In this document: positions 2,841-26,190 of the stretch, piece by piece | How positions within the stretch are numbered: the first letter of the stretch is position 1 | Layout of the letters: the number at the start of each line of letters is the position of its first letter | Assembly: GCA_937959315.1 (NCBI GenBank) | Contig: CALGRC010000003.1 | Span: 1-50,988, forward strand | DNA: 50,988 nucleotides | Source: an uncultured Clostridia bacterium | GTDB taxonomy: Bacteria > Bacillota > Clostridia > UMGS1810 | Direction: 5' to 3' | Notes under the pieces: generated by a model | Told to the model about the DNA's origin: nothing | The model's input: only the letters and a program-made list of their open reading frames with translations | The model's database searches: none | Program-made: the position numbers and the translations under genes

Positions 2841-2864
2841 CATATATATGATATCAAACCAAGG

Positions 2865-2893
2865 AAAACCGCACGCAGCCGTGCGGTTTTTTT
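2865..2893 (+). terminator. rho-independent terminator
   Basis: CCGCACG / CAGC / CGTGCGG stem-loop followed by TTTTTTT. Confidence 0.75.
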
Positions 2894-2922
2894 ACGCCTT
2901 TTTTAAAGGAGGAGGAACAGCC

Positions 2923-3522
2923 ATGATGAACTATATCTGGGTGGGGATGGTGCTGTTTTCGCTTGCCTGCGCGGCGTTTACCGGCCGGCTGGACAAGACC
3001 ATGCAGGCGGCCTTTTCCGGCGCCAACCAGGCCCTTGCCACCGTACTGGGGTTTTTGGGGGTGATGTGCCTGTGGACGGGGCTGATGCGCATTGCTGAGC
3101 GCGCAGGGCTGACAAACGTGTTTGCCCGCGCCATCCGCCCGCTGGGGCGGCTGATATTCCCGCGCTTAGACCCCAAATCGCCCGCTTTTTCGGCCATTTC
3201 CATGAACATGGTCGCCAACATGCTGGGCCTTGCCAACGCCGCCACCCCGCTGGGGCTCAAAGCCATGCAGGAACTGGAACAGCGCAACCGTACGCCCGGC
3301 CGGGCCAGCGATGAAATGTGTGCATTCGTCGTGCTCAACACCGCATCCATCCAGCTCATCCCCTCTACCCTCATTGGCATCCGTGCGTCCATGGGCAGCG
3401 CCGCGCCCGCCGAAATCATCCTGCCCGTCTGGCTGGTGTCCATCGCTGCTGCCACGGCCGGTATTGCTGCGGTGCGGCTGTGCGCCGCCCGCGGGCGGCG
3501 GAAGGGGCGGGCGGCATGCTGA
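2923..3522 (+). CDS. spmA: spore maturation protein A (nucleoside-recognition/Gate domain membrane protein)
   Basis: ATG 2923 follows AAGGAGGAGG. The 199-aa membrane protein begins MMNYIWVGMVLFSL... and is paired with an overlapping spmB-like partner. The 2578 start in the track is a GC-driven extension. Confidence 0.75.
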   Translation: MMNYIWVGMVLFSLACAAFTGRLDKTMQAAFSGANQALATVLGFLGVMCLWTGLMRIAERAGLTNVFARAIRPLGRLIFPRLDPKSPAFSAISMNMVANMLGLANAATPLGLKAMQELEQRNRTPGRASDEMCAFVVLNTASIQLIPSTLIGIRASMGSAAPAEIILPVWLVSIAAATAGIAAVRLCAARGRRKGRAAC

Positions 3523-4052
3523 GGGCAGTTTCGGCCATTTCCTCGTGGGCCATGCCGCTGATGATGTTTGGCATCCTCGCCTTCGGGCTTTACCGCCGGG
3601 TGCCGGTGTACGACGCCTTTTTAGAGGGCGCAAAGGAAGGCTTAAAAACCGGCGTTTCCATCATCCCGCCGATATTGGGGCTTTTAGTGGCCATCGGTAT
3701 GCTGCGGGCCTCCGGCGCGCTGGAGCTCATCACGGCCGCCATCCGCCCGGTGACCGATTTCCTGCGCTTCCCGCCCGAAATTGTCCCGTTCGCGCTCATG
3801 CGGCCCATGTCAGGCGGCGGGTCGCTGGCGCTGGCGACCGATTTGTTCCAGCAGTACGGCGCCGACAGCTTGATCGGCCGCGCGGTGTCGGTCATGATGG
3901 GTTCCACAGAGACAACATTTTATACACTCGCAGTGTATTTTGGCGCGGTGGGCGTTAAAAATACCCGCTACACCGTCAAATGCGCGCTTTTGGCCGACAT
4001 GGCCGGTATTTTGCTGTCAGTGTGGGTATGCTGTTTTGTTTTTGGCGGATAA
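3516..4052 (+). CDS. spmB: spore maturation protein B
   Basis: ATG 3516 overlaps the spmA stop (ATGCTGA). The 178-aa membrane protein contains ...MRPMSGGGSLALATDLFQQYGADSLIGRAVSVMMGSTETTFYTLAVYFG..., typical of SpmB. Confidence 0.75.
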   Translation: MLRAVSAISSWAMPLMMFGILAFGLYRRVPVYDAFLEGAKEGLKTGVSIIPPILGLLVAIGMLRASGALELITAAIRPVTDFLRFPPEIVPFALMRPMSGGGSLALATDLFQQYGADSLIGRAVSVMMGSTETTFYTLAVYFGAVGVKNTRYTVKCALLADMAGILLSVWVCCFVFGG

Positions 4053-4119
4053 ATCCTTGCGAAATGCTGAAAATAATGATAAAATAGGAAAAAGTGTTTA
4101 CAAAAGGAAGGGATTTCCC

Positions 4120-6042
4120 ATGAGCGAAAAATTTTATATTACGACGGCCATTGCCTATACCTCGCGCAAGCCGCACATCGGCAACACCTACGAGGCCATC
4201 TATACCGACGCCATTGCGCGGTTCCAGCGCATGCTGGGCAAGGATGTGTTTTTCTTGACCGGCACCGACGAGCACGGGCAGAAAATTGAGGAGATTGCCA
4301 AGGAAGCGGGCGTTTCCTGCCAGGACTATGTGGACGGGGTGGCGGGTGAAATCCGCGCCATTTGGGATAGGATGAACGTCAGCTACGATAAGTTTATCCG
4401 CACCACCGACGGCTATCACGTGAAGGCGGTACAAAAAATCTTCAAACAGCTCTACGACCAGGGGGACATTTACAAGGGCGAATACGAGGGCTGGTACTGT
4501 ACGCCGTGCGAGTCCTTTTTCACCGACACGCAGATTGTGGACGGCAAGTGCCCCGACTGCGGCCGCCCGGTGCAAAAGACCAAGGAAGAGGCGTACTTTT
4601 TCAAAATGTCCAACTACCAGGACAAGCTGATGGATTATATCGAGTCCCATCCGGAGTTTATCCAGCCGGAAAGCCGCAAAAAAGAGATGGTCAACAACTT
4701 TTTAAAGCCGGGCCTGCAGGATTTGTGCGTATCCCGCACATCGTTCAAATGGGGCATCCCCGTCACCTTTGATGACAAGCACGTCATCTATGTGTGGATT
4801 GACGCGCTTTCCAACTACATCACGGCGCTGGGCTACGGCTCGGACGACGACAGCCTGTACCGCAAATACTGGCCGGCGGATGTACACGTCATCGGCAAGG
4901 ACATTTTGCGGTTCCATACGATATACTGGCCCATTATGCTCATGGCACTGGGGCAGCCGCTGCCCAAGCAGATTTTTGGGCACCCGTGGCTGCTGTTTGG
5001 CGAAGACAAAATGAGCAAATCGCGCGGCAACGTCATTTACGCCGACCATTTGGCGGACAAATTCGGCACCGACGCGGTGCGTTACTATGTGCTGCGCGAG
5101 ATGCCCTTTGCGCAGGACGGGACCATTACGTATGAAAACATCATCGCCCGCTACAACGCCGATTTGGCAAACACGCTGGGCAACCTGGTCAACCGCACGG
5201 TGGCCATGGCGCAGAAATATTTCGGCGGCAAAGTCGCCTGCACCGGCGCATCCGACCCGCTGGACGGCGAGGTGATGGCGCAGTGCGCCGCCGCCCGGGA
5301 CGAGCTGGTGGCAAAAATGAACGAGCTGCGTGCCGCCGACGCGCTGGAAAGCTTAATGGCGCTGGCGCGGCGGTGCAACAAATACATCGACGAGACCGCG
5401 CCGTGGGCGCTGGCCAAGGAGGAATCCAAGCTGCCGCGGCTGCAAACGGTGCTGTACACCCTGCTGGAAGCCATCCGGTTTATCGGCATCCTGTGCGCGC
5501 CGTTTATGCCCGAAACATCTGAAAAAATCCTGGCGCAGATTGGCGCGGAGGAAACTGGTTTTGAAAGCCTGTCCGCCTTCCGGCTGGACGCACAGGTGCA
5601 GGCCGGAACCCCCGAACCGCTGTTTGCGCGCATTGACGAAAAGAAGCTGCTCTCAGAGCTGGCCGCCGCAGCGCCTGCGCCGGAAGCCAAAAAAGAGGAA
5701 AAGGGGCCGGAGACCAAGCCGGAAATTACCATCGACGACTTTGGAAAAATAGAACTCAAAGTTGGAAAAGTGCTGGAATGCAAGCCAGTGGAGGGCGCGG
5801 ACAAGCTGCTGGTGTCGCAAATCCAAATCGGCGGCGAGGTGCGGCAGATTGTCTCGGGCATTGCCAAATACTACACGCCGGACGAAATGGTGGGCAAAAA
5901 GGTGGTTGTCGTCACCAACCTAAAGCCGGTCAAGCTGCGCGGGGTGCTCAGCCAGGGCATGGTGCTGTGCGCGTCAGAGGGCGGCAAACTGTCGCTGGTA
6001 TCGCCGGACGACGCCATTCCCGACGGCGCGGAGGTGCGGTAA
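4120..6042 (+). CDS. metG: methionine--tRNA ligase with C-terminal tRNA-binding (EMAP/Trbp111-like) domain
   Basis: The protein starts MSEKFYITTAIAYTSRKPHIGN (HIGH-type motif). It has the zinc knuckle CTPCESF..CPDCGRP, the KMSKS motif (EDKMSKSRGN), and a C-terminal KVGKVLECKPVEGADKLLVSQIQIG OB-fold. ATG 4120 follows AAGGAAGGG. Confidence 0.95.
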   Translation: MSEKFYITTAIAYTSRKPHIGNTYEAIYTDAIARFQRMLGKDVFFLTGTDEHGQKIEEIAKEAGVSCQDYVDGVAGEIRAIWDRMNVSYDKFIRTTDGYHVKAVQKIFKQLYDQGDIYKGEYEGWYCTPCESFFTDTQIVDGKCPDCGRPVQKTKEEAYFFKMSNYQDKLMDYIESHPEFIQPESRKKEMVNNFLKPGLQDLCVSRTSFKWGIPVTFDDKHVIYVWIDALSNYITALGYGSDDDSLYRKYWPADVHVIGKDILRFHTIYWPIMLMALGQPLPKQIFGHPWLLFGEDKMSKSRGNVIYADHLADKFGTDAVRYYVLREMPFAQDGTITYENIIARYNADLANTLGNLVNRTVAMAQKYFGGKVACTGASDPLDGEVMAQCAAARDELVAKMNELRAADALESLMALARRCNKYIDETAPWALAKEESKLPRLQTVLYTLLEAIRFIGILCAPFMPETSEKILAQIGAEETGFESLSAFRLDAQVQAGTPEPLFARIDEKKLLSELAAAAPAPEAKKEEKGPETKPEITIDDFGKIELKVGKVLECKPVEGADKLLVSQIQIGGEVRQIVSGIAKYYTPDEMVGKKVVVVTNLKPVKLRGVLSQGMVLCASEGGKLSLVSPDDAIPDGAEVR

Positions 6043-6948: not shown

Positions 6949-7296
6949 ATGGCGCCCATGCTGCCAATTGTCAAATTTGAACTGAAAAAAGCCCTGCGCA
7001 ACGGAAGCTTTTTTGCCTGCGGCGCGGTCTGCCTGCTGGGGATCGCCATATTGGCGGTCTGGATGCAGTCGCTGTCCGCCGTCCGGCTGATGCGCGTATT
7101 CCCCCTCCTTGCCATCCCGGCGGCGGCTGTTTGTATGCCCAATGTCCGGCAGGGCGCCTCCCCGCTGTTTCTTTCGTTCCCCCTGCGGCGGCGCGCGGTG
7201 GCTGCGGGCAAATGCTCCGCCGCCGCGCTGACGCTGCTATTTTGGGCAGGCATCTGCACGCTGGTACTGCTGGCGCCCGCGCTGTTTGCCCGGTAA
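6949..7296 (+). CDS. small hydrophobic protein (possible membrane partner of the downstream ABC ATPase)
   Basis: 115 aa after AAAGGAGGA, with 3-4 predicted hydrophobic spans. The N-terminus MLPIVKFELKKAL resembles ABC-2 permease starts, but the protein is much shorter. No family was recognised. Confidence 0.45.
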   Translation: MAPMLPIVKFELKKALRNGSFFACGAVCLLGIAILAVWMQSLSAVRLMRVFPLLAIPAAAVCMPNVRQGASPLFLSFPLRRRAVAAGKCSAAALTLLFWAGICTLVLLAPALFAR

Positions 7297-7311
7297 GGAG
7301 GCCTGCAGATT

Positions 7312-7923
7312 ATGCCACTTACCGTAGCCAACCTTTGCAAATCCTATGGGCAGGCGCCCATATTCCAACATATATCTTTTTGCGCAGACGCAGGCGCGTT
7401 TGCCATTACCGGCGCGCCGGGCAGCGGCAAAAGCACGCTTTTCCGGATGATAGCCGGCCTGGAAGCCCCGGACAGCGGCAGGGTGCTGCTGGATGGGCAA
7501 AATTTGTACACAACCCCCGGCCTTGCCAAACGGCAGGTTGGGTTTTTGCCGCAGCGGCCGGTGCTGGACGGCGACGCCACAGCGGCGGATGTGCTGCACC
7601 TGTGTGCGCAGCTATCGGGCGAAAAGGACCGGCTGCGCCGCATTTACCAGGTAGAACGGCTGCTGCACCAGCTGGGGCTGGAAGGGGAAGCAAGGCAAAA
7701 AACAGCCCTTTTCACACTGGGTATGAAAAAACGGCTGTATCTGGCGGCCTGCCTTATCAAGCATCCCCGCGTGCTGCTGCTGGACGCCCCCGACCAAGGG
7801 CTAAACGGCTATGAACGGCAGCTAGTATCCGCCGTCATTGCACAGCAGGCCGCAAGCATTCCAGTGCTGTGCGCCCTGCAAAACCCAGCCGCCTTTTCGC
7901 TGCCGGTGCTGGCCGCTTTATAA
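7312..7923 (+). CDS. ABC transporter ATP-binding protein, degenerate catalytic motifs
   Basis: Walker A GAPGSGKST, Q-loop region FLPQRP and ABC-2-type signature TLGMKKRL are present. Walker B reads VLLLDAP (Ala where the catalytic Glu is expected), and there is no His in the H-loop region. 203 aa. Confidence 0.8.
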   Translation: MPLTVANLCKSYGQAPIFQHISFCADAGAFAITGAPGSGKSTLFRMIAGLEAPDSGRVLLDGQNLYTTPGLAKRQVGFLPQRPVLDGDATAADVLHLCAQLSGEKDRLRRIYQVERLLHQLGLEGEARQKTALFTLGMKKRLYLAACLIKHPRVLLLDAPDQGLNGYERQLVSAVIAQQAASIPVLCALQNPAAFSLPVLAAL

Positions 7924-11443: not shown

Positions 11444-11536
11444 ATGACTGTTTTTAAACTGGCCTTAGGGGGATGTTATGCCCTAAAATGAGGGCAGACG
11501 TATCCGTTACGATAGCAAAGGGGAGGTGTTTCACTC

Positions 11537-11671
11537 GTGAAAAGAACATATCAGCCAAACGTCCGCCACCGCAGTAAAGTCCACGGGTTCCGTGCCAGAA
11601 TGAGCACGGCGAACGGCAGAAAGGTACTGGCGCGCAGAAGGCTCAAAGGCCGCAAAGTACTGTCGGCTTAA
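11537..11671 (+). CDS. rpmH: 50S ribosomal protein L34
   Basis: Absent from the ORF track because it is under 60 aa. GTG 11537 follows GGGAGGTG and the product is [44 protein letters not shown], the canonical L34 sequence. Confidence 0.97.
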
Positions 11672-11685
11672 AACAGGACGGGAAA

Positions 11686-11711
11686 GAGACCACGGACATG
11701 TGGTCTTTTTT
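11686..11711 (+). terminator. intrinsic-terminator-like hairpin between rpmH and rnpA
   Basis: GACCAC / GGACAT / GTGGTC followed by TTTTTT, 15 nt after the rpmH stop and 23 nt before the rnpA ATG. Confidence 0.6.
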
Positions 11712-11733
11712 AAAATCAGGAGAAGTATCCATC

Positions 11734-12063
11734 ATGAAAGGGACCATCAAAGAAAACCGGGATTTTTGCTATGGATACCGCCGCGGGAAAAAGGTGGTGT
11801 CCCATGCAATGGTGCTGCACTATTACCCCAACCGTACCGGGGAAACCAAACTCGGCATTACCGTATCCAAGGCAGTGGGGAAGGCGGTGAAGCGCAACCG
11901 CGCCAAACGGCTGGTGCGCGCCTGTTTCCAGGCGGCAAAGCCGCATATAAAACCCGGCTACAATATTATCATCGTTGCGCGCACTGTGCTGGCGCATATG
12001 AAACAGTGCGATGCAATGGCCAATTTGGAATACTGTTTAAAAAAATCGGAGCTGATGAAATGA
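11734..12063 (+). CDS. rnpA: ribonuclease P protein component
   Basis: ATG 11734 follows AGGAG. The protein begins [21 protein letters not shown] and contains ..[23 protein letters not shown] (RNR motif). It sits after rpmH. Confidence 0.92.
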
Positions 12064-12281
12064 AAACCCTGCCAAAACGGCTGTTTCTGTGGCTTATCCG
12101 GTTTTACCGCACAGCCATTTCGCCCTATAAAAAACCTTGCTGCCGGTTTGTGCCCACCTGCTCGCAGTATGCGTTGGAAGCGGTGGAAAAGTACGGCGCA
12201 TGGAAGGGTGGGTACCTGGCCGTCCGCCGATTACTCAAATGCCATCCCTTTCACAAGGGCGGCTACGACCCGGTTGGATAA
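12060..12281 (+). CDS. yidD: membrane protein insertion efficiency factor YidD
   Basis: ATG 12060 overlaps the rnpA stop (ATGA). The sequence [53 protein letters not shown] is the YidD signature. Confidence 0.92.
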
Positions 12282-12306
12282 CCGGCATACTTTGGAGGTT
12301 TAGACT

Positions 12307-13224
12307 TTGAGTATTTTCAGTATTTTAATTACCAACCCCCTGGGCTATATACTGGGGTTTATTTACAATTTCACCCTTAATTACGGCTGGGCGCTGGTGA
12401 TATTTACCATTTTAATCAAGCTCATTTTGCTGCCGCTGGGCTTAAAGCAGCAAAAGTCCATGACGCGCATGCAGTTTGTCCAGCCAAAGATGGCGGAAAT
12501 CCAGGAAAAATACAAAAACGACAAAAACAAGCAGTCGGAAGAAATGATGAAGCTGTACAAGGAATACAAGGTCAGCCCCATGGGCGGCTGCCTGCCGCTG
12601 CTGATCCAGCTTCCCATCCTGTACGGCCTGTATTGGGTTATCCGCGAGCCGCTGCGTTATATGCTGCACATCCCCATGGACCAAATCAACCAGATGATTG
12701 CCGACGGCGGTTTTTCCGGCTATAATGCGCAGATTTTGGTGGCCCACGCGCAAAACCTCATCAATTTCAACTTCCTGGGCCTGGATTTGTCCGCCCAGCC
12801 TGAGCTCACCAAGCCAAGCTGGCTGTGGCTGATCCCGCTTTTAGCCGGTGTGACCACCTTTTTAACCAGTAAGGTCACAACCTGGATGAATAAAAAAGAT
12901 ACCGACAAAGCCAAGAAAGAGGAAGAAAAGAAACCGCAGCGGGTGCTCAACCCCGATCAGAAGCAGCAGCCGGGCGCCGGCCAGACCGAAGGTATGATGA
13001 AGGGGATGCTGTATTTTATGCCGCTCATGACGCTGTGGATTACCTTTACCGTACCGGCCGCACTGGGTGTTTACTGGACCATCAGCAACATTTTGTCGCT
13101 GCTGCAAACCCTTGTGCTCAACGGGTATTATGCCAAAAAACTCAAGACGGAATACGCCGCGCTGGAGGAGCAAAAGGAACTGGAACGGCAAGAGCGCGCA
13201 AAACGAAAGAAAAGAAGGGGGTAA
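12307..13224 (+). CDS. yidC: membrane protein insertase YidC/SpoIIIJ
   Basis: TTG 12307 is 8 nt after GGAGG. The Oxa1/YidC core is present (LLPLGLKQQKSMTRMQFVQPKMAEIQEKYKND...MGGCLPLLIQLPIL), followed by a basic C-terminal tail. Confidence 0.92.
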   Translation: MSIFSILITNPLGYILGFIYNFTLNYGWALVIFTILIKLILLPLGLKQQKSMTRMQFVQPKMAEIQEKYKNDKNKQSEEMMKLYKEYKVSPMGGCLPLLIQLPILYGLYWVIREPLRYMLHIPMDQINQMIADGGFSGYNAQILVAHAQNLINFNFLGLDLSAQPELTKPSWLWLIPLLAGVTTFLTSKVTTWMNKKDTDKAKKEEEKKPQRVLNPDQKQQPGAGQTEGMMKGMLYFMPLMTLWITFTVPAALGVYWTISNILSLLQTLVLNGYYAKKLKTEYAALEEQKELERQERAKRKKRRG

Positions 13225-13230
13225 GCGGCC

Positions 13231-13866
13231 GTGAAAACTGTTGAAAAAACGGCAAAAACCGTAGAAGAAGCCATTGCAGAGGCGCTGGCAGAACTGCACG
13301 CCGAACAAGGCGATGTGGAAATTGAAGTGCTGGACGAAGGGGAAAAAGGATTCCTGGGGTTTGGAAAAAAGGAAGCGCGGGTGCGGGTGACCGAAAAGCC
13401 CAACGCCGAAAAACGCATCAAAGAATTTTTAAACGGCCTGTTTGCCATTGCAGGCGAGGATGTGACGGTAACCGTATCGCAGGCGGACGACCGTATGGTC
13501 GCAGACCTGTCCGGACCGGATATGGGCATTGTCATCGGCAAGCGCGGCGAAACGTTGGACGCCTTGCAGCATCTGACCAGCCTGTACGTCAACCGCGGGG
13601 ACGCGGAATTTGTGCATTTGACGCTGGACTGTGAAAATTACCGGGCAAAACGGGCAAAATCACTTGAGTCGTTTGCGGCAAATGTGGCGGCAAAGGTCGC
13701 CAAAACACGCCGGACGGTGACGCTTGAGCCCATGAGCGCCTATGAACGGCGGATCATCCATGCGTCGCTGCAAAACCATCCGGACGTAACCACCTACAGC
13801 ACCGGCCAAGGGCCTGGGCGGCGGGTTGTCGTCTGCCTGAAATCCAAGGCGCCAAAAACCAACTGA
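13231..13866 (+). CDS. jag: Jag/KhpB RNA-binding protein (Jag_N + KH + R3H)
   Basis: GTG 13231. Jag_N region: KTVEEAIAEALAELHAEQGDVEIEVLDEGEKGFLGFGKK. KH-like region: GIVIGKRGETLDALQHL. R3H region: LEPMSAYERRIIHASL. Confidence 0.9.
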   Translation: MKTVEKTAKTVEEAIAEALAELHAEQGDVEIEVLDEGEKGFLGFGKKEARVRVTEKPNAEKRIKEFLNGLFAIAGEDVTVTVSQADDRMVADLSGPDMGIVIGKRGETLDALQHLTSLYVNRGDAEFVHLTLDCENYRAKRAKSLESFAANVAAKVAKTRRTVTLEPMSAYERRIIHASLQNHPDVTTYSTGQGPGRRVVVCLKSKAPKTN

Positions 13867-13874
13867 CGTATACC

Positions 13875-13898
13875 AGCGGCCGCATGGCCGCTTTTTTC
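13875..13898 (+). terminator. rho-independent terminator
   Basis: AGCGGCC / GCAT / GGCCGCT followed by TTTTTT. Confidence 0.7.
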
Positions 13899-13941
13899 TT
13901 AGGCGTACCCCATCATTTTTCAATTTTCCGGAGGAATTGCC

Positions 13942-15318
13942 ATGCCTTACCCATCCCAAACTGATACCATTGCCGCCATATCCACCCCCTACGGCACGGG
14001 GGGGATTGCGGTCATCCGCGTCAGCGGCGCCCAAGCCATTTCCATAGCGGACAAGCTCTACCGCGGCAAAGCGCCGCTTTCCCAGGCGGGCAGCCATACC
14101 GTCTGCTACGGCGGCATTTATGAAGACGGCGCGCGGCTGGACGAGGTGCTGGCTACGGTGCTGCGCGCACCGCGCACCTACACGCGGGAGGATACGGTGG
14201 AAATTAGCTGCCACGGCGGGATATGCTGTGCCAACCAGGTATTGTCGGCCGTGCTGCGCGCCGGCGCGCGGCTGGCTGAGCCAGGGGAGTTTACCAAGCG
14301 CGCCTATTTTAACGGGCGCATCGATTTGACAGAGGCCGAGGCGATTTTGGGGCTGATACAGGCCAAAACCCCCCGCGGCTGCCGGGCGGCGGTCCATCAG
14401 ATGGGCGGGGCGCTGTCTGACCGGATTGGCCGGATACGGAACAGCCTGCTGTCCCTCTCTGCGCACGTACAGGTGCTGTGCGACTACCCCGACGAGGGGT
14501 TGGAACCGCTGTCCGACCAGGCGTTTGCCATGCGGCTGGACAATTGCAGGCAGGCGCTGCATGCATTGCTTGCGGCGGCCGACCGCGGCCGGATTGTCCG
14601 GGACGGCATCGATACGGTGATCGCCGGCCGGCCAAACGTGGGGAAATCCTCGCTGCTGAATTTGCTGTGCGGCAGCGAACGCGCCATTGTAACCGACATT
14701 GCAGGCACCACCCGCGACACGCTGGAAGAGAGCGTCACGCTGGGCGGGCTGCTGCTGAAGCTGTCCGACACCGCCGGCATCCGCGATACCGACGAGGCAG
14801 TGGAAGCCATTGGCGTACAGCGCGCGCGGGAACGGCTGGGGCAGGCGGCGCTCATCCTATACCTGGTGGACGGTTCGGAACCGGAAAACCCGGAGGATGT
14901 ACAGCTATTATCCACATTGCCGCCCCAAACCACCATTTTGCTGCGCAACAAAGCGGACAAGGGCTGTGCGCTGGAAAAAAACGCCTTTCCCAGCTTCCCG
15001 CACCAGCTTGCCTTTTCTGCCAAAACCGGGCAGGGGCTGGATAAGCTGGAACATCTGGTGACGGCGCTGTTTTTGGAGCAGGACGGCCTATCATCGCCCG
15101 ACGACGCCGTTTTGCTCAGTGTACGGGCGCGCGCGGCGGCAGAGCAGGCGCTGTCCTGCGTTTGCGACGCCCAGCAGGGCATGGCGGACGGCTTTTCGCC
15201 CGACACCGTCGTGCTGGACATTGAAGCCGCCATTGGGCATTTGGGCGAGGTGGACGGCAAATCGGTCAATGAAGAGGTGGTAGATGCCATGTTCCACCAA
15301 TTTTGCGTAGGAAAGTAA
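13942..15318 (+). CDS. mnmE: tRNA uridine-5-carboxymethylaminomethyl modification GTPase
   Basis: G-domain motifs GRPNVGKSSLLN, DTAGIR and NKAD are present, and the C-terminal FCVGK matches the C(I/V)GK motif. Confidence 0.95.
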   Translation: MPYPSQTDTIAAISTPYGTGGIAVIRVSGAQAISIADKLYRGKAPLSQAGSHTVCYGGIYEDGARLDEVLATVLRAPRTYTREDTVEISCHGGICCANQVLSAVLRAGARLAEPGEFTKRAYFNGRIDLTEAEAILGLIQAKTPRGCRAAVHQMGGALSDRIGRIRNSLLSLSAHVQVLCDYPDEGLEPLSDQAFAMRLDNCRQALHALLAAADRGRIVRDGIDTVIAGRPNVGKSSLLNLLCGSERAIVTDIAGTTRDTLEESVTLGGLLLKLSDTAGIRDTDEAVEAIGVQRARERLGQAALILYLVDGSEPENPEDVQLLSTLPPQTTILLRNKADKGCALEKNAFPSFPHQLAFSAKTGQGLDKLEHLVTALFLEQDGLSSPDDAVLLSVRARAAAEQALSCVCDAQQGMADGFSPDTVVLDIEAAIGHLGEVDGKSVNEEVVDAMFHQFCVGK

Positions 15319-15330
15319 GGGGGGCTGTTT

Positions 15331-17208
15331 GTGCAGGAATATCAGGCGGGAAGCTATGACATTGCGGTCATCGGCGGCGGGCATGCCGGGTGTGAGGCGG
15401 CGCTGGCCGCCGCGCGCATGGGCTGCCGCGTCATCTTATTTTCCATCAATTTAGACACCATTGCCAATATGGCCTGCAACCCGTGCATCGGCGGTACGGC
15501 AAAGGGGCACCTGGTACGCGAAATTGACGCGCTGGGCGGCGAGATGGGCAAAGTGGCCGACAAGACCATGATCCAATCCAAACTGCTGGGGCGCAGCAAG
15601 GGCCCGGCGGTCTATTCGCTGCGCGCGCAGGCCGACCGGCGCGCCTACCAGCAGGAGATGAAGCACCGGCTGGAACGGCAGCAAAACCTGGATGTCAAGC
15701 AGGCGGAAATTGTGGACATCGGGTTTGAAAAGGGCGCGGTGTGCTCGGTGCTGACCCATTTGGGCGCACGCTATGCCGTCAAGGCGGCCATTGTCGCCAC
15801 CGGCACCTTTTTAAAGGGGACGGTACATATCGGCGAGGTAAGCTACCCATCCGGGCCGGACGGGGTGTTCCCCTCCGGGCCGCTGTCCGGCTGCCTGCGG
15901 GCGGCCGGCGTACCGCTTATGCGGTTTAAAACGGGGACGCCGGCACGTATCAACAAAAACAGCGTGGATTTTTCCAAAATGGAACCCCAATATGGAGACG
16001 ACCAGATTACGCCGTTTTCATTTGAAACGGAAACCCCAGGCAAAAACCAGGTGCTGTGCTACCTCACCTATACCACGCCCGAAACCAAACGGATCATTTT
16101 GGACAACCTGCACCGTTCCCCGCTCTACAGCGGCCGGATTGAAGGGGTGGGGCCGCGCTACTGCCCATCCATTGAGGATAAGATGGTGCGGTTCCCCGAC
16201 AAAGAGCGGCACCAGATATTCATTGAACCCATGGGGCTGGACACCGACGAGCTGTATGTGCAGGGGCTGTCCTCCAGCCTGCCGGAGGAGGTGCAGGAAG
16301 CCTTTTTACACACCATCCCGGGGCTGGAACACGCGGTGGTGCAGCGCACCGCCTATGCCATCGAATACGACTGCACCGACGCCACCGCGCTGTATGCGAC
16401 CTTGGAATTTAAAGGCCACCCGGGCCTGTACGGCGCCGGGCAGTTCAACGGCAGTTCTGGCTACGAGGAAGCCGCCGCGCAGGGGCTTATCGCCGGCATC
16501 AACGCGGCGCGGAAAATCCAAGGCAAACCGCCCTTTACCTTAACGCGCGCCGAAAGCTATATCGGTACGCTGATTGACGACCTGACGGTAAAGGGCACCA
16601 ACGAGCCCTACCGTATGCTGACTTCCCGCAGCGAATACCGCCTGCTGCTGCGGCAGGACAATGCCGACCTGCGCCTGACCGAAAAAGGGCATATGCTGGG
16701 GCTCATTTCTGACAGCCGGTATGAGAGGTTCCTGCAAAAAAAACAAGCGATAGAAGCCGAAATTAAGCGCGTGACGCACACCAGCGTCCCGCCGTCCGAC
16801 GCGGTCAACCAATTCCTTGCCGCGCACGGCAGCACACCCATTTCCACCGGGATTGGCTTAACAGACCTTTTGCGCCGGCCGGAGCTCACCTATGCGCTGT
16901 GCGCGCCCATCGACCCAGGCCGTCCCGCCTTGCCGCCCGCCGTGGCGGAACAGGTGTATATCCAAATCAAATACGAAGGGTATATCAAAAAACAGCTAGC
17001 GCAGGTAGAGCGGTTCCGTCAGCTAGAAGAAAAACCGCTGCCGCCGGACCTGGATTATACCGGTATCCCGGGCCTGCGCACAGAAGCGGTACAGAAGCTC
17101 ACCGCCCAGCGCCCGCAGACAGCCAGGCAGGCAGCGCGCATCTCCGGCGTATCCCCCGCCGACCTGGACGCCATACTTATCCATTTAAAAGCAAAAAAAT
17201 CCCGTTAA
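15331..17208 (+). CDS. mnmG: tRNA uridine 5-carboxymethylaminomethyl modification enzyme (FAD-dependent)
   Basis: GTG 15331. The FAD fold YDIAVIGGGHAGCEAALAAARMG is present, along with CNPCIGG and GQFNGSSGYEEAAAQGLIAG. 625 aa. Confidence 0.96.
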   Translation: MQEYQAGSYDIAVIGGGHAGCEAALAAARMGCRVILFSINLDTIANMACNPCIGGTAKGHLVREIDALGGEMGKVADKTMIQSKLLGRSKGPAVYSLRAQADRRAYQQEMKHRLERQQNLDVKQAEIVDIGFEKGAVCSVLTHLGARYAVKAAIVATGTFLKGTVHIGEVSYPSGPDGVFPSGPLSGCLRAAGVPLMRFKTGTPARINKNSVDFSKMEPQYGDDQITPFSFETETPGKNQVLCYLTYTTPETKRIILDNLHRSPLYSGRIEGVGPRYCPSIEDKMVRFPDKERHQIFIEPMGLDTDELYVQGLSSSLPEEVQEAFLHTIPGLEHAVVQRTAYAIEYDCTDATALYATLEFKGHPGLYGAGQFNGSSGYEEAAAQGLIAGINAARKIQGKPPFTLTRAESYIGTLIDDLTVKGTNEPYRMLTSRSEYRLLLRQDNADLRLTEKGHMLGLISDSRYERFLQKKQAIEAEIKRVTHTSVPPSDAVNQFLAAHGSTPISTGIGLTDLLRRPELTYALCAPIDPGRPALPPAVAEQVYIQIKYEGYIKKQLAQVERFRQLEEKPLPPDLDYTGIPGLRTEAVQKLTAQRPQTARQAARISGVSPADLDAILIHLKAKKSR

Positions 17209-17221
17209 AACGGGATTTTTT
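17193..17221 (+). terminator. rho-independent terminator overlapping the mnmG stop
   Basis: ATCCCG / TTAAAA / CGGGAT followed by TTTTT. The stop codon lies in the loop. Confidence 0.75.
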
Positions 17222-17226
17222 AATAT

Positions 17227-17430
17227 TGTGGATATCCAGGCCCGCCCTATGCACAATGGGAATAGCGTTGTGGAAATTTATCCTCTTTTTTTGAAAAGGG
17301 TGTTGATAAATATGCTGAAATCTGGTACAATTAATAAGGAAATTTTTTTTACAGCATTGTGGAAAAAAACCTGTGGAAACCCTGTATTTATCCACATTTT
17401 GTGCGAAACTGTGGATAAGTTTGTGGATAA
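17227..17430. other. oriC part 1: DnaA-box cluster upstream of dnaA
   Basis: There are seven 9-mers. Perfect TTATCCACA/TGTGGATAA boxes lie at 17388-17396, 17410-17418 and 17422-17430. One- or two-mismatch boxes lie at 17227-17235 (TGTGGATAT), 17269-17277 (TGTGGAAAT), 17358-17366 (TGTGGAAAA) and 17372-17380 (TGTGGAAAC). Confidence 0.88.
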
Positions 17431-17451
17431 CTTGATATACGGAGGCCGAAC

Positions 17452-18812
17452 ATGGAAGCATTGAGCGCCATTTGGCAAAATACGCTCGACATCATCAAAC
17501 CGGACATCCAGCCAGTGAGTTTTTCTACCTGGATTGACACCATTGTGCCGGTATCGATGGACAGCCGTACCATTACGCTGGAAGTGCCCTACGACTACAA
17601 CAAAGTGATGATAGAAACCCGCTATGCAGCGCTTATCCAAAATGCGCTGCTCTATTTAACCGGCCGGGAATATGAACTGCATATTGTCATACAAGGGGAG
17701 CTGGCCGCCCAAAAAAAGGAATTACAGGATATAGAACAGACATCCAATATGCTCAACCCTGCCTATACGTTCGATACGTTTGTTATCGGGAAGTCCAACC
17801 AACTGGCGCATGCGGCTTCCCTGGCGGTAGCGGAAGCCGCCGGCAGTATTTATAACCCGCTGTTCCTATACGGCGGCGTCGGGCTTGGTAAAACCCATCT
17901 GATGCACGCGGTGGGTAACTATGTGCTCAAAACGTCCCCCAATAAAAAGGTGGTATACGTTTCCAGCGAAACTTTTACCAACGACCTTATCAACGCCATC
18001 AAAGATGACCGCACCGAGCAGTTCCGCAGCAAATACCGCTTAATCGATATCCTTATGGTAGACGATATCCAATTCATCGGCGGGAAAGAGGGGACGCAGG
18101 AAGAATTTTTCCATACGTTCAACACCCTTTACCAGGCCGGAAAACAGATTATCCTGTCATCCGACCGGCCGCCAAAGGAACTGTACACGCTGGAAGACCG
18201 GCTGCGGACCCGGTTTGAATCGGGGCTGATTGTGGATATCAAGCCGCCCGATTTTGAAACCCGGATCGCCATTTTAAAGAAAAAAGCCGACCAGGTGCAA
18301 GTGGAAATTGACGACGAAATCTACCGTTACGTCGCAAATAAAATCACTTCCAATATCCGGGAGCTGGAAGGGGCCATCAAAAAAATTGTGTCCTATCACA
18401 ACCTTATCCGCGAAGATATTACGCTGTCGCTGGCGGAAAAAGCCTTAAAAGACTTTAACACTTCCAACAAAAAGCCGGTGACGCCCGAACTCATTATAGA
18501 AACGGTGGAAAAGCAGTTTGGACTGAAAGAAAACGATTTAAAATCCACAAAAAAAACGCGGGATATCGCCTATCCGCGGCAAATGGCCATGTATGTTATC
18601 AAAGAACTGACCGACTTTAACCTAACCAAAATCGGGCAGGTATTCTCCGGGAAGTGACGCAGATGTCCATGGCCCCCATCGGGGAGGAATTCGGCGGCCG
18701 GGATCATTCCACCGTGGTCTACGCACTCAAACAGGTGGAAAAGCAGGTGGAGTCCGATTCCCGTCAGAAGGCCATCATTGACGACATCATCAAAAACGTC
18801 AAACAGCAATGA
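17452..18812 (+). pseudogene. dnaA: chromosomal replication initiator DnaA, reading frame broken in domain IV (as sequenced)
   Basis: ATG 17452 follows GGAGG. Walker A GGVGLGKTHLMHA and Walker B LMVDDIQF are present. The frame stops at TGA 18655-18657 (401 aa) before the DnaA signature. The missing C-terminus, IGEEFGGRDHSTVVYALKQVEKQ...NVKQQ*, continues in the -1 frame to 18812. Confidence 0.9.
18604..18697 (+). repeat. two tandem diverged 47-nt versions of one dnaA domain-IV segment
   Basis: Copy 1 (18604-18650) encodes ELTDFNLTKIGQVFSG and copy 2 (18651-18697) encodes EVTQMSMAPIGEEFGG. They share 29/47 nt by hand alignment. The period is 47 nt (3n-1). Deleting either copy restores one 437-codon ORF. 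Confidence 0.85.
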
Positions 18813-19011
18813 TATCCACACCAGGAAACATAGATAAAAACTAAAAAAAACCACAATTTCCACACCATACACACCGTGTGAAATACCAAAAAATGCAAGG
18901 GCTTTTTTATACACGCTGCTGTGGATAGGGCCACCGCAGTATCCGCGGCTGCATACACACCCATTTTCCCAGCGGCGGTGCGCAATCCCAGCCTTGTCCA
19001 CACCATCCACA
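18812..19011. other. oriC part 2: DnaA-box cluster between dnaA and dnaN
   Basis: Near-consensus boxes are ATATCCACA (18812-18820), ATTTCCACA (18856-18864), TGTGGATAG (18920-18928), TTGTCCACA (18994-19002) and CCATCCACA (19003-19011). Confidence 0.8.
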
Positions 19012-19014
19012 GCC

Positions 19015-19069
19015 CTACTACTACGACTACTATTTTTTTATACATATATTTATTATTTATAAATAACTA
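19015..19069 (+). other. DnaA-trio array plus AT-rich DNA unwinding element
   Basis: After the last two boxes and a GCC spacer come CTA CTA CTA CGA CTA CTA (19015-19032), which is TAG trios on the other strand. A roughly 37-nt stretch follows (19033-19069) that is nearly all A/T: TTTTTTTATACATATATTTATTATTTATAAATAACTA. Confidence 0.75.
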
Positions 19070-19084
19070 AGCGGAGGATGACAG

Positions 19085-20188
19085 ATGAAATTTACATGCG
19101 ATAAATCCATCATCAACGAAACGGTGTCTACCGTATCCAAAGCGGCGAACGCCAGCAGCGCGGTAGAACTGCTGAAAGGCATCAAAATTGACGCGGGTTC
19201 CGTATTAACCATGACCGGCTCAGATATGGAAATTTCCATCGAACGGGAATTTGCAGCAGATATCACAGAACCCGGCAGCATCATCATCGATGCGCGGCTG
19301 TTTGCCGACGTTGTGCGCCGCCTGCCGGAAGGGAACGTGGCAATTGAAACAAAAGACCGCGGGGAAGTCCTCATATCCTGCGGGCAGGTCAAATATAACC
19401 TGTTATATTTATCCAGCGACGGGTATCCGGCAATCCAAAAAGTCCAAGACGGCATGTCCCTGAAAGTATACAGCCGGGATATCAAAGAAATGGTAAAAAA
19501 CACTTTGTTTGCCGTCTCCACCAGCGACGCACGGCCAATCCTTACCGGATGCAAATTTGAGGTGGCCGGTTCCCGGCTGTCGGTGGTAGCCATTGACGGG
19601 TACCGGCTGGCCAAGCGCAACCAGGTGATACCGGATACTGGCATTGCGGACGCTTCTTTTGTCATCCCCGGGCGGGTACTGAACGAGCTTTTAAAAATCC
19701 TGCGGGATGATGAAACCATTGTAGAACTATTGGTAAGCGGCAATGCGGTGATGTTCCGGTTTGACGGCTATTGTTTTGTGTCCAGGCTTCTGGAAGGGGA
19801 ATTTATCGACTATTCCCGTATCATCCCGCCGTCATGGACCACCCGGCTCAATGTCGATGTCAGGCAGCTGGGTGAAACCATTGAACGGGCGGCGGTTATC
19901 ATCAATTATGACGACCCGCGTATCCCCATTGCGCTGGGCATTGCCGATTCCCGCCTGACGGTAGACTGCACCACCAAGCGCGGTACCCTCAACGAGGGAA
20001 TGGCGGCCGACCAGGAAGGGGATAATTTAAAAATCCGGTTTTCTTCCCGGTTTTTGTTAGACGCGTTGAAAGCGGTGGACGCAGAACGCGCTTATTTGGA
20101 ATTTACCTCTGACCAGAGCCCGTGCGTTGTCCGCCCAATAGAAGGGGATTCATTTTTATATATGGTGCTGCCTGTGCGGCCCAACTAG
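19085..20188 (+). CDS. dnaN: DNA polymerase III beta sliding clamp
   Basis: 367 aa, beginning MKFTCDKSIINETVSTVSKAA, with a length consistent with three domains. It follows dnaA. ATG is preceded by GGAGGA. Confidence 0.95.
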   Translation: MKFTCDKSIINETVSTVSKAANASSAVELLKGIKIDAGSVLTMTGSDMEISIEREFAADITEPGSIIIDARLFADVVRRLPEGNVAIETKDRGEVLISCGQVKYNLLYLSSDGYPAIQKVQDGMSLKVYSRDIKEMVKNTLFAVSTSDARPILTGCKFEVAGSRLSVVAIDGYRLAKRNQVIPDTGIADASFVIPGRVLNELLKILRDDETIVELLVSGNAVMFRFDGYCFVSRLLEGEFIDYSRIIPPSWTTRLNVDVRQLGETIERAAVIINYDDPRIPIALGIADSRLTVDCTTKRGTLNEGMAADQEGDNLKIRFSSRFLLDALKAVDAERAYLEFTSDQSPCVVRPIEGDSFLYMVLPVRPN

Positions 20189-20197
20189 GAGGGGCTT

Positions 20198-20428
20198 ATG
20201 GAACTTGAAATCATTGCCATACACACGCCCGCTATTTCCCTCGGCCAGTTTTTAAAATTTTCCAATACGGTTGCAGCAGGGGCGGATGCAAAATTCTTAA
20301 TCCAGAACGGGTTTGTGCAGGTGAACGGCCGGACGGAAACGCGGCGGGGGCACAAGCTAGTGCCCGGCGACCGGGTGGACATATCCTACGAGGATGACCA
20401 TATATCCCTGGCGGTGGGCAGCGCATGA
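20198..20428 (+). CDS. yaaA: S4-domain RNA-binding protein YaaA
   Basis: 76 aa with ISLGQFLKFSNTVAAGADAKFLIQNGFVQVNGRTETRRGHKLVPGDRV. It occupies the conserved slot between dnaN and recF. Confidence 0.88.
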   Translation: MELEIIAIHTPAISLGQFLKFSNTVAAGADAKFLIQNGFVQVNGRTETRRGHKLVPGDRVDISYEDDHISLAVGSA

Positions 20429-21504
20429 CGGCCGGCCGGCTGGAACTGTTAAATTTCCGCAGCTATCCGGCGGCGGACATCACATTTTCGCCTGGGATGA
20501 ATGTGATTTACGGCGGGAACGGCCAAGGGAAGACCAATCTGCTGGAAGCAGTATATCTATTCTGTACCGGGAAATCCTACCGGACGGCGCACGATATTGA
20601 AACGGTGCGGTTTGGGGCGCAGCGCGCCCGGGTGCGCCTGTCTTTTTCCGACAGCAAGCGGGCGCATACGGCGGAACTCCGGCTGGGGGATAAAAAAGCG
20701 GTCAGCGTCAACGGCGTTCCGGTCGGCAGGCTGAGCGAACTGGTAGGGATGTTCCGTGCGGTGATTTTTACCCCTGAACATTTGGGGCTGATACGGGGCG
20801 GCCCGGCGGCCCGGCGGCAGTTTTTGGATGTCTTCATCAGCCAGTGGAAGCCGGTATATTTTCAAACGCTGCTGTCCTACTATCAGGTGGTCCGGCAGCG
20901 GAACAGCCTTCTCCGGCAGCGGCCGGCAGATTTGCTTGGCCAGCTGGAGATATGGAATGAAAAGCTGTATGAATACGGAAAAGCGGTGTGCGCCGGCCGG
21001 GAAGAGGCGCTTTCGTCTTTAAATACCGCCGTACAGGCGGCTGCAAGGGATATCACCGCAGGGAAAGAGGAGTATACCCTTTGTTACCAGCCGTCTGTCA
21101 AAGGGGATTATGCCGACAAAGAGCATTTTATGGCGCAGCTCCGTCGCGTTTTTGACCAGGAAGTGGAAAAGGGCGTATCCCTTATCGGCCCGCACCGGGA
21201 TGATTTTGCCGCGCGCCTTGGCGGCCGGGATTTGAAAAAATATGGTTCCCAAGGGCAGGTACGCACCTGTGTGCTGGGGTTAAAACTTTCTGAATGTGAA
21301 ATGATTGCACACCATTGCGGCGATTATCCTGTGCTGCTTTTGGATGATATGTTAAGCGAATTGGACGGGCCGCGGCAGGAATATTTGCTTTCCCATATCG
21401 GGGGGCGGCAGGTGCTTTTGACCCATGCAGGCAGGCATCCGGTATTGCCGCATGCACAGGCGGTTTTTTATGTGCGGCAGGCAGCGGTAGTGCGGGAACG
21501 GTAA
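20425..21504 (+). CDS. recF: DNA replication/repair protein RecF
   Basis: The sequence LLNFRSYPAADITFSPGMNVIYGGNGQGKTNLLEAVY contains the Walker A motif, and LLLDDMLSELD is the Walker B. The start overlaps the yaaA stop. Confidence 0.95.
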   Translation: MTAGRLELLNFRSYPAADITFSPGMNVIYGGNGQGKTNLLEAVYLFCTGKSYRTAHDIETVRFGAQRARVRLSFSDSKRAHTAELRLGDKKAVSVNGVPVGRLSELVGMFRAVIFTPEHLGLIRGGPAARRQFLDVFISQWKPVYFQTLLSYYQVVRQRNSLLRQRPADLLGQLEIWNEKLYEYGKAVCAGREEALSSLNTAVQAAARDITAGKEEYTLCYQPSVKGDYADKEHFMAQLRRVFDQEVEKGVSLIGPHRDDFAARLGGRDLKKYGSQGQVRTCVLGLKLSECEMIAHHCGDYPVLLLDDMLSELDGPRQEYLLSHIGGRQVLLTHAGRHPVLPHAQAVFYVRQAAVVRER

Positions 21505-21523
21505 AACCAGAGGGGATGAAAAG

Positions 21524-23733
<2,210 letters not shown>

Positions 23734-23736
23734 CAA

Positions 23737-26190
23737 ATGGAGCAGCAACGGAATGAAAAGGGCATCCAGGTAGAAATCAGCAAAGAAATGAAAAAGTCGT
23801 ATATCGACTATGCGATGAGCGTGATTGCCGGCCGCGCGCTGCCCGATGTGCGGGACGGCTTAAAACCGGTGCACCGGCGGATTATTTATACCATGAACGA
23901 GGATGGGTTTACACCGGATAAACCGCACAGGAAGTGCGCTACCACCGTCGGCGACGTGCTGGGGCGGTACCATCCGCACGGCGACGCGGCCGTGTATGAT
24001 GCATTGGTGCGCATGGCGCAGGATTTTTCGCTGCGCTACCCGCTTGTGGACGGGCACGGCAACTTTGGCTCGGTGGACGGCGACGGCGCTGCCGCCTACC
24101 GGTATACCGAAGCGCGCATGAGCCGGCTTGCCACCGTCATGCTGCGGGATATTGACAAAGATACGGTAGATTTTGTGCCAAATTTTGATGAAAACCGCAA
24201 AGAGCCGGTGGTGGTGCCGTCGCGGTTCCCGCAGCTTTTGTGCAACGGGTCGTCGGGGATTGCAGTGGGGATGGCTACCAATATCCCGCCGCACAACCTG
24301 TGCGAAGTGGTGGACGGCATTGTGGCTATCATCGACAATCCCGAACTGACGCTGGACGGGCTGATGGAGCACATCAAGGGGCCAGATTTTCCAACTTATG
24401 GCATTATTATGGGGAAAAGCGGTATCCGCAAGGCTTATGAAACCGGGCGCGGCAAAATTGTCATACGCGCACGCACTGAAATTGAGGAAATGGACAATGG
24501 GAAGTCGCGTATCATTGTCACCGAACTCCCCTACCAGGTCAACAAAGCGCGTATGATTGAAAAAATGGCCGATCTGGCCAAGGACAAAAAAGTTGACGGT
24601 ATCACCGATATCCGCGATGAATCTGACCGGGACGGCATGCGGGTGGTCATTGAGCTGCGGCGGGACGTCAACGCCAATATTGTGTTGAACCAGCTGTTTA
24701 AATATACGCAGCTGCAGGAGGCGTTCGGTATCATCATGCTGGCGCTGGTGGACGGCCAGCCGAAGGTGCTTTCCCTGCGTGAAATGCTGGATCACTATAT
24801 CGATTTCCAGAAATCGGTCATTGTGCGGCGCACCCAGTTTGATTTGAAGAAAGCACAGGCGCGGGCGCATATTTTAGAGGGGCTGCGCATTGCGCTGGAC
24901 AACATTGACGAGGTGATTGCCACCATCCGCGCCAGCTACAACGACGCCAAGGAAAAATTGATGGAACGGTTTGGGCTGAGCGACCTGCAGGCGCAGGCTA
25001 TCCTGGATATGCGCCTGGCACGGCTGCAAGGGCTGGAGCGGGAAAAAATTGAAGAGGAATATGCCGAGCTTATGAAACAGATTGCCTATTACCAGGCGGT
25101 GCTTGCCAGCGAGCAGATGGTGCTGGATATTGTGAAAGCAGAGCTTTTAGAAGTCAAGGAAAAATACGGCGACGACCGGCGCAGTGAAATTACGATGGCG
25201 GTAAATGAAATCAACTTGGAAGATTTGATTGAAGAAGAAGATAACGTCATTACGATGACCCACTACGGGTATATCAAGCGGCTGCCGGTGGACACCTATA
25301 AAAGCCAGCACCGCGGCGGGCGCGGCATTTCCGGGCTGCAAACGCGCGAAGAAGATTTTGTAGAAACACTGTTTATCTCGTCCACCCATGCGCATTTGCT
25401 GTTTTTCACCAACCGCGGCCGTATGTTTAAAATCAAGGCATACCAGATACCGGAAAGCGGGCGGCAGTCCAAGGGGACGGCGATTGTCAACCTGATCGAG
25501 TTAGACAACAATGAAAAAATCACTGCGATGATTCCCGTGAGGACTTTTGAAGACGGATATTACTTAACGATGGTTACCAAAAACGGCGTGGTGAAAAAGA
25601 CGCCGGTGATGGACTATGCCTCCACCCGGCGGGGCGGCCTGATTGCCATTGGCCTGCGGGAGGATGACGAGCTAATCCGCGTCAAGCTGACCGACGGCAA
25701 CCAGCAGATCATTTTGGGTACGCGGGACGGCATGTGTATCAAATTTGCAGAAAGCGACGTGCGTCCCATGGGGCGCGGCGCCAGCGGCGTAATGGGCATC
25801 CGGCTGCACAGCGGCGACCAAGTGGTGGGCATGAGCATCTGCCGCGAAGGCGGGAGCCTGCTCACGGTAACTGAAAACGGCTATGGCAAAAAAACGCCTT
25901 TGGAGGAATTTAAGCTGCAAAACCGCGGCGGGAAAGGGGTAACTGGATACCGGCTGACTGATAAAACCGGCCTGGTTGCCGGTATGAAGGTGGTGGACGA
26001 CAGCGACGATGTTATGATTATTACATCAGATGGCGTTATCATCCGCACCGGCGTGGAGGAAATCAGCGAATATGGCCGCGTAACCCAAGGCGTACGGGTC
26101 ATGCGCCCGGATGACGGTGTGGGCGTAGTTTCCATTGCCAGGGTTTCCAAAGAGGAAGAAGAAAGCGACGTTATGGAACCAACAGAATGA
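23737..26190 (+). CDS. gyrA: DNA gyrase subunit A
   Basis: GRALPDVRDGLKPVHRR, the QRDR RYHPHGDAAVYDALVRMAQ, the catalytic-Tyr context AAAYRYTEARM and a C-terminal beta-pinwheel are present. 817 aa. Confidence 0.97.
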   Translation: MEQQRNEKGIQVEISKEMKKSYIDYAMSVIAGRALPDVRDGLKPVHRRIIYTMNEDGFTPDKPHRKCATTVGDVLGRYHPHGDAAVYDALVRMAQDFSLRYPLVDGHGNFGSVDGDGAAAYRYTEARMSRLATVMLRDIDKDTVDFVPNFDENRKEPVVVPSRFPQLLCNGSSGIAVGMATNIPPHNLCEVVDGIVAIIDNPELTLDGLMEHIKGPDFPTYGIIMGKSGIRKAYETGRGKIVIRARTEIEEMDNGKSRIIVTELPYQVNKARMIEKMADLAKDKKVDGITDIRDESDRDGMRVVIELRRDVNANIVLNQLFKYTQLQEAFGIIMLALVDGQPKVLSLREMLDHYIDFQKSVIVRRTQFDLKKAQARAHILEGLRIALDNIDEVIATIRASYNDAKEKLMERFGLSDLQAQAILDMRLARLQGLEREKIEEEYAELMKQIAYYQAVLASEQMVLDIVKAELLEVKEKYGDDRRSEITMAVNEINLEDLIEEEDNVITMTHYGYIKRLPVDTYKSQHRGGRGISGLQTREEDFVETLFISSTHAHLLFFTNRGRMFKIKAYQIPESGRQSKGTAIVNLIELDNNEKITAMIPVRTFEDGYYLTMVTKNGVVKKTPVMDYASTRRGGLIAIGLREDDELIRVKLTDGNQQIILGTRDGMCIKFAESDVRPMGRGASGVMGIRLHSGDQVVGMSICREGGSLLTVTENGYGKKTPLEEFKLQNRGGKGVTGYRLTDKTGLVAGMKVVDDSDDVMIITSDGVIIRTGVEEISEYGRVTQGVRVMRPDDGVGVVSIARVSKEEEESDVMEPTE

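Follow-up and report, generated by a model that had tools for sequence, protein, structure and literature searches.

The dnaA gene of the contig studied here is broken into two reading frames by a short stretch that resembles the dnaA of another bacterial clade, and the split is in all likelihood a local chimeric error introduced during sequencing, assembly or polishing, not a feature of the living genome. The window, that is, the whole 50,988-bp stretch of DNA that was analysed, is an entire contig from an assembly of metagenomic origin and contains no Ns. An error is the most likely explanation because seven other assemblies, from this species and from a sister species, carry an intact dnaA.

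Results

A dnaA gene in two frames

In the list of open reading frames (ORFs), the dnaA frame stops at a TGA at 18655-18657, the 401-aa product ending in ...IGQVFSGK (...ELTDFNLTKIGQVFSGK), and the C-terminus goes on in the -1 frame up to 18812 (...MAPIGEEFGGRDHSTVVYALKQVEKQVESDSRQKAIIDDIIKNVKQQ; Table 1). Pfam finds full-length matches to PF11638 (DnaA_N) and PF00308 (Bac_DnaA, the AAA+ ATPase domain) in the 401-aa ORF, and divides Bac_DnaA_C between this product (positions 1-57 of 69) and the 52-aa ORF (positions 42-69 of 69), with 16 profile positions occurring twice across the two. By both Pfam and the ORF list, no single reading frame of the window dnaA holds a complete Bac_DnaA_C with RDH(S/T)TV, and the two agree on the place at which the first-pass annotation had found the gene to be split. 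With respect to a canonical DnaA (DnaA_N, Bac_DnaA and Bac_DnaA_C, as in the database protein P0001), the window gene is alike in residues 1-397, in its gene context and in its flanking DnaA boxes, but its domain IV breaks off after position 57 of the 69 in the profile, and the remainder lies in another frame and belongs to another allele.

Table 1. Features in and around the split dnaA, with positions in the window
Feature	Position	Strand	Description
Upstream DnaA-box cluster	17227-17430		7 boxes with at most 1 mismatch
Truncated dnaA ORF, 401 aa	17452-18657	+	Native to 18645; residues 1-397 100% identical to P0001
Unit 1 (ELTDFNLTKIGQVFSG)	18604-18650	+	Own allele; 45/47 against same-species contig L082; 18646-18650 already inside the patch
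Left junction	18644-18653	+	Breakpoint between 18645 and 18646; native ...GGTATTC joined to donor-type TCCGGGAAGTG..., from the three-way comparison of window, native contigs and donor clade
Patch of foreign type, dnaA domain IV fragment of another lineage	18646-18770	+	Encodes (L)REVTQMSMAPIGEEFGGRDHSTVVYALKQVEKQVESDSRQK; 125 nt replace 78 native nt, net +47 nt
Unit 2 (EVTQMSMAPIGEEFGG)	18651-18697	+	Orthologous segment of the foreign-type allele; 40-43/47 to the donor clade, 31/47 to the native allele, 29/47 to unit 1
-1-frame ORF, 52 aa, chimeric C-terminal remnant	18654-18812	+	Called as 49 aa in public databases (P0121)
Native dnaA 3' end (AIIDDIIKNVKQQ*)	18771-18812	+	42/42 to native contigs, 34/42 to donor-clade contigs
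Downstream DnaA-box cluster, dnaA-dnaN spacer	18812-19002		3 boxes with at most 1 mismatch

The first-pass annotation had described the anomaly as two head-to-tail versions of one 47-nt segment, 18604-18650 and 18651-18697. These two units are equal at 29 of 47 nt and differ in GC content (48.9% versus 63.8%), and the ORF ends, the TGA, the -1 frame up to 18812, the identity count and the GC values were all as it had given them. The match between the units peaks at offset 47 (29 nt), the other offsets between 40 and 55 giving 12-22 per best 47-nt window; Tandem Repeats Finder, run on 18300-19000, reported no repeat, because the units are too diverged for it. Deleting either unit does produce an uninterrupted ORF of 437 codons, as had been claimed, but whichever unit is removed, the natural DnaA of the relatives is not regained.

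Independent assemblies carry an intact dnaA

Five same-species contigs (Logan ERR11566494, ERR11566493 and SRR33795258; ENA ERZ27268538 and ERZ505336) are 99.4-100% identical to the window in BLASTN over 11452-24793, about 13 kb. The alignments fall into two blocks, 11452-18653 and 18771-24793, parted by the anomaly alone, and the only structural difference between the window and the five contigs is the interval 18646-18770. All five encode an intact 437-aa DnaA, and dnaA is intact too in two contigs of a sister species, which share 83-88% nucleotide identity with the window. In the multiple alignment with contigs L081-L087, 78 nt (GGCGGGAAAGACCAC...AACACCCGC, also written GGCGGGAAAGACCAC...CCCGC) stand where the window has 125, and the window equals the same-species contigs through 18645 and again from 18771. 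The first-pass annotation had said that a single copy of the segment and an intact 437-aa DnaA in close relatives would speak against a real structure, and this is what these relatives have.

The protein records give the same picture. A search with the read-through query returned intact DnaA proteins of 437-438 aa with 90-93% identity to it (P0001, P0002 and P0004), of which P0001, identical to the window protein up to residue 397, then continues with GGKDHTTVIHAIRKIEQDIKNDPNTRAIIDDIIKNVKQQ. In all the more distant relatives, to as low as 76% amino-acid identity, DnaA has the native ...KIGQVFGGKDHTTVIHAIRKIEQD... allele and a C-terminus of the form ...KIGQVFGGKDH(T/S)TVIHAI(R/K)KIEQD.... In a collection of about 15 billion proteins, both the 401-aa product and the 49-aa remnant are the sole members of their clusters and come from a single contig of 50,988 bp; the 49-aa remnant is MGnify MGYP002262398310, and the 401-aa protein is recorded from NCBI and ENA. 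A 29-mer spanning the junction of the window had no match in JGI metagenome contigs. In a scan of species-representative genomes, the DnaA genes among the matches listed were only distant ones (at most 57%).

The patch resembles the dnaA of another clade

Judged by its similarity, the 125-nt patch is foreign and comes from a different clade of Oscillospiraceae. Against the dnaA genes of this donor clade (contigs L095-L105 and L088) it aligns without gaps at 83-86% identity (104-107 of 125 nt), and donor-clade DNA aligns with the window over 18646-18803, likewise ungapped, at 85-87%; in its own register, the patch matches the native ortholog at 63 of 120 positions. Its GC content is 0.60, that of the rest of the window dnaA 0.478 and that of one donor-clade dnaA 0.547, and over their whole length, the DnaA proteins of the two lineages, native and donor, share 41% identity. 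Searching with the patch peptide led to short C-terminal fragments of DnaA, the closest being P0122 (86%), which comes from a low-coverage contig of a different organism, and extending P0122 led in turn to a well-populated Oscillospiraceae clade (P0142-P0156, with the NCBI name on P0142), with a Paludicola sp. at 79%. The DnaA of this clade ends in ...AMYIVREVTQMSMAPIGEEFGGRDHSTVVYALKQVEKQIQTNSRQKAIIDDIIKNIKNK. The exact donor is absent among the best hits listed, in which the top DNA match reaches 86% over the patch and 87% to 18803. A 30-mer of the patch had no match in JGI metagenomes, and the 50,988-bp window holds no further copy of the patch.

The edges of the patch are sharp, the window being 100% native directly on either side. 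Its length is at least 125 nt, about one short read, and could reach about 150 nt should the true donor and the native 3' end agree over a longer stretch. The anomaly, which had been taken to consist of the two 47-nt units, is in fact this longer patch reaching 18770. The second unit had been read as a diverged tandem copy of the organism's own segment; on the comparison with the two lineages, it is the 5' part of the foreign patch and no copy of unit 1, as it matches the other Oscillospiraceae clade at 40-43 of 47 nt versus 29 for unit 1. Since unit 2 is part of the patch, the C-terminus in the -1 frame is chimeric, and not the native rest of a normal C-terminus that the first reading had seen in it.

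One junction out of register, one in register

At the left junction (junction sequence GGGCAGGTATTCTCCGGGAAGTGACGCAG), native ...GGGCAGGTATTC, which runs to 18645, abuts TCCGGGAAGTGACGCAG..., the donor clade having ...(A/G)T(C/T)G-TCCGGGAGGT(T/C)AC(C/G)CAG, i.e., Val-Arg-Glu-Val-Thr-Gln. We place the breakpoint between 18645 and 18646, instead of at the boundary between the units (18650 and 18651) that had been regarded as the join, because 18646-18650 (TCCGG) belong to the foreign allele; the mismatches of unit 1 with L082 are confined to 18646-18647, where the window has TC instead of GG. The donor segment starts 47 nt before the point at which the native one stops. This join is therefore out of gene register by 47 nt and breaks the frame by -1 (125 - 78 = +47 nt), and because it comes 47 nt early, 16 codons of the form E(L/V)T...IG..F.G occur twice, head to tail, once as the native and once as the foreign allele. 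The apparent tandem repeat thus arises, as we read the alignment, from orthologs having been spliced out of register, and the 29 of 47 nt that the units share would be ordinary ortholog similarity. The earlier view that the units are head-to-tail alleles of a single segment holds. The sole likeness at the left join is an imperfect 12-mer, ATTC[GG/TC]CGGGAA (native ATTCGGCGGGAA, window ATTCTCCGGGAA), and there is no common k-mer of useful length.

At the right junction, the register is kept. Donor-type ...TCCCGTCAGAAG gives way to GCCATCATTGACGACATC..., where every base up to the stop codon is native (42/42), and the junction falls inside GCCATCATTGACGA..., where at least 14 nt are common to the native lineage and the donor clade.

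The origin region

The gene order around dnaA is rnpA-yidD-yidC-jag-mnmE-mnmG-dnaA-dnaN-S4-recF-remA-gyrB-gyrA. The window contains 27 DnaA boxes (TTATCCACA, at most one mismatch) versus about 8 expected, and this enrichment, together with the clusters around dnaA, marks the region as that of the chromosomal origin; the arrangement points to a bipartite oriC with dnaA between its two parts, as in Bacillota. The genes from rnpA to mnmG (rnpA-yidD-yidC-jag-mnmE-mnmG, 11700-17208) lie on the same strand as dnaA and read towards it; rpmH or rnpA lies on the opposite strand in the donor-clade contigs L095, L100 and L102 and in L089. GC skew is close to 0 upstream of dnaA and becomes clearly positive only from about 20 kb. 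In several of the same-species contigs L081-L085 (in L081, for example, at 7171-7503), an antisense ORF of 110 aa overlaps the end of dnaA and the spacer to dnaN, with its window counterpart at 18570-19010 on the minus strand; the 110-aa ORF has no Pfam match, and gene callers have probably predicted it spuriously across the DnaA boxes.

Other probable sequence faults around dnaA

Short "DnaA C-terminal" proteins of 47-59 aa were considered as a sign that split dnaA genes recur, and in the two cases inspected, P0122 and P0136, this is not so. In L088 (ENA ERZ14650973, NODE_24388, coverage 1.58), an in-frame TAG at 710-712 (AMYSVR*VTQMSM...) stands where relatives have GAG or GAA (Glu), probably a sequencing error at 1.6x coverage, and it gives rise to the spurious 49-aa ORF that is P0122. 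P0136 is a separately called C-terminal ORF, also of 49 aa, found on 16 contigs. In another Oscillospiraceae species, L089 (NCBI GCA_948942155.1, about 2840-3000) and L094 (about 640-700) have frame-changing runs of N in dnaA, and the contigs L090-L093, of the same species as L089, begin within the 3' part of the gene. The P0136 cases are scaffold gaps or contig breaks and no real split genes. Such cases suggest that the conserved 3' part of dnaA is hard to assemble in mixed communities. Elsewhere in the region, L082 (ENA ERZ27268538), otherwise 99.96% identical to the window, carries mnmG (gidA) as two ORFs of 243 and 369 aa at 3880-5757; mnmG is one 625-aa gene in the window and in the remaining contigs, and the split in L082 is likely a further local error in a public assembly.

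Discussion

The features of the split dnaA allow us to propose how the consensus may have come about. A 125-nt piece of the dnaA of another Oscillospiraceae would have been written into it in place of 78 native bases, the donor organism presumably living in the same sample as the recipient; upstream of the patch, the donor gene would read ...ATGTA(C/T)AT(C/T)GTCCGGGAAGTG. At the right junction, a plain de Bruijn path would suffice if the true donor has a common k-mer there. At the left junction, no useful common k-mer exists, so that a plain de Bruijn path fails and an extra step must be assumed. Candidate routes for this join are mismatch-tolerant closing of tips or gaps, the merging of scaffold overlaps in short-read assembly, a polisher that re-assembled the site locally from mis-mapped short reads of the other species, or a chimeric library molecule. 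Gap closers of the SPAdes type tolerate about 2 mismatches in an overlap of about 10 nt, a tolerance into which the left junction would fall. The organism itself would have a normal 437-aa DnaA like P0001. The first-pass annotation had offered, among its explanations, both an artefact of strain mixture, assembly or polishing and an out-of-register joining of two diverged dnaA alleles; the assembly or polishing artefact and the joining of alleles both describe what is there.

Local assembly errors that corrupt coding sequences in metagenome-assembled genomes (MAGs), as well as chimeric ORFs, have been documented (Chen, Anantharaman, Shaiber, Eren & Banfield 2020, Genome Res, PMC7111523), the criterion for such an error being that no read perfectly supports the consensus. 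The case described here resembles them in that a short stretch of consensus spoils a protein-coding gene while the rest of the contig is correct, in that the region is conserved between community members, and in that other assemblies expose it, the split structure being absent from the independent same-species assemblies. It is unlike them in that the stretch is recognisable as part of an ortholog from another family, joined out of register.

Genuine illegitimate recombination, too, leaves one junction in homology and the other at a microhomology. In this case, DNA from a gut or environmental Oscillospiraceae would have been taken up in a wild population, and about 125 nt of its dnaA would have entered the initiator gene of an unrelated Clostridia bacterium in vivo, with short homology at one end and microhomology at the other, leaving dnaA as a pseudogene. 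We consider this improbable. The patch is clearly of foreign origin, and the right junction lies in register within at least 14 common nt and the left one out of register at the imperfect 12-nt overlap, as recombination would have it, but a join made in silico would look alike. In the process termed SPDIR, as the preprint describes it (bioRxiv 10.1101/2023.11.22.568220), ectopic single strands anneal at microhomologies and produce variable microindels. The likeness to HFIR/SPDIR events is that a short foreign segment replaces a native one between a homology and a microhomology junction with a net indel. On the other side, the events that the preprint presents are experimentally selected and rare, in Acinetobacter baylyi, and SPDIR is called there a rare mutation mechanism (bioRxiv 10.1101/2023.11.22.568220), while the window event appears in one assembly only and would inactivate an essential gene. 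It is missing from the five near-identical assemblies and from every other record searched; no real molecule or lineage with the junction came to light among these, the 29-mer being absent from JGI contigs and the split proteins confined to one contig. The patches in reports of SPDIR are mostly shorter than 125 nt, which also counts against this origin. The RDHSTV signature helix of domain IV has an essential role in DnaA, and its loss from the 401-aa product should be lethal. As the DNA-binding domain of the replication initiator is destroyed at the chromosomal origin, such an allele is not expected at consensus frequency in a population. If the recombination were real, it would mean that the lineage tolerates the loss of DnaA domain IV or starts replication in some other way, and the contig would be rare evidence from nature of interspecies short-patch recombination within an essential gene.

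Hardly likely, too, is a collapse of haplotypes, in which a normal strain and a strain with an in-register mosaic dnaA, carrying an Oscillospiraceae domain IV, would have been stitched together out of register. That each allele is a well-formed domain-IV sequence in its own frame, and that the right junction falls in common sequence, would agree with it. However, the closest proteins include no in-register mosaic (P0001, P0002 and P0004-P0009 have the native C-terminus), the foreign TCCGG abuts the native GGTATTC with no homologous crossover point, and a co-occurring donor species is a simpler account of the same data. Under such a collapse the split would remain artefactual, though a mosaic initiator of two species would be real.

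A duplication of the organism's own 47-nt segment followed by divergence, or a functional dnaA that is split or decoded by frameshifting, is exceedingly improbable: the 29 of 47 nt at offset 47 lie well over the other offsets, but the second copy is closer to the dnaA of a foreign clade (40-43/47) than to the resident allele, the divergence runs 73 nt past unit 2, strains 99.9% identical to the window lack a second unit and thus leave no time for a divergence of 38%, and the two-frame layout is conserved in no relative. A programmed -1 ribosomal frameshift had already been judged unsupported by the first-pass annotation, and indeed there is no X_XXY_YYZ slippery heptamer at TCC GGG AAG TGA and the relatives are all single-frame.

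All together, a local chimeric error in the consensus is the explanation that we favour. An essential gene stands in a public MAG contig in chimeric form and with a broken frame, and two spurious proteins, of 401 and 49 aa, have entered the databases. The conserved cores of universal genes can, as this case illustrates, take up read-sized pieces of other species during metagenome assembly or polishing, and comparison with independent assemblies exposes such errors simply. The value of the case lies in a flagged database error and in an example of interspecies chimerism within a universal gene; the organism's DnaA is almost certainly an ordinary one, and the split itself has little biological weight.
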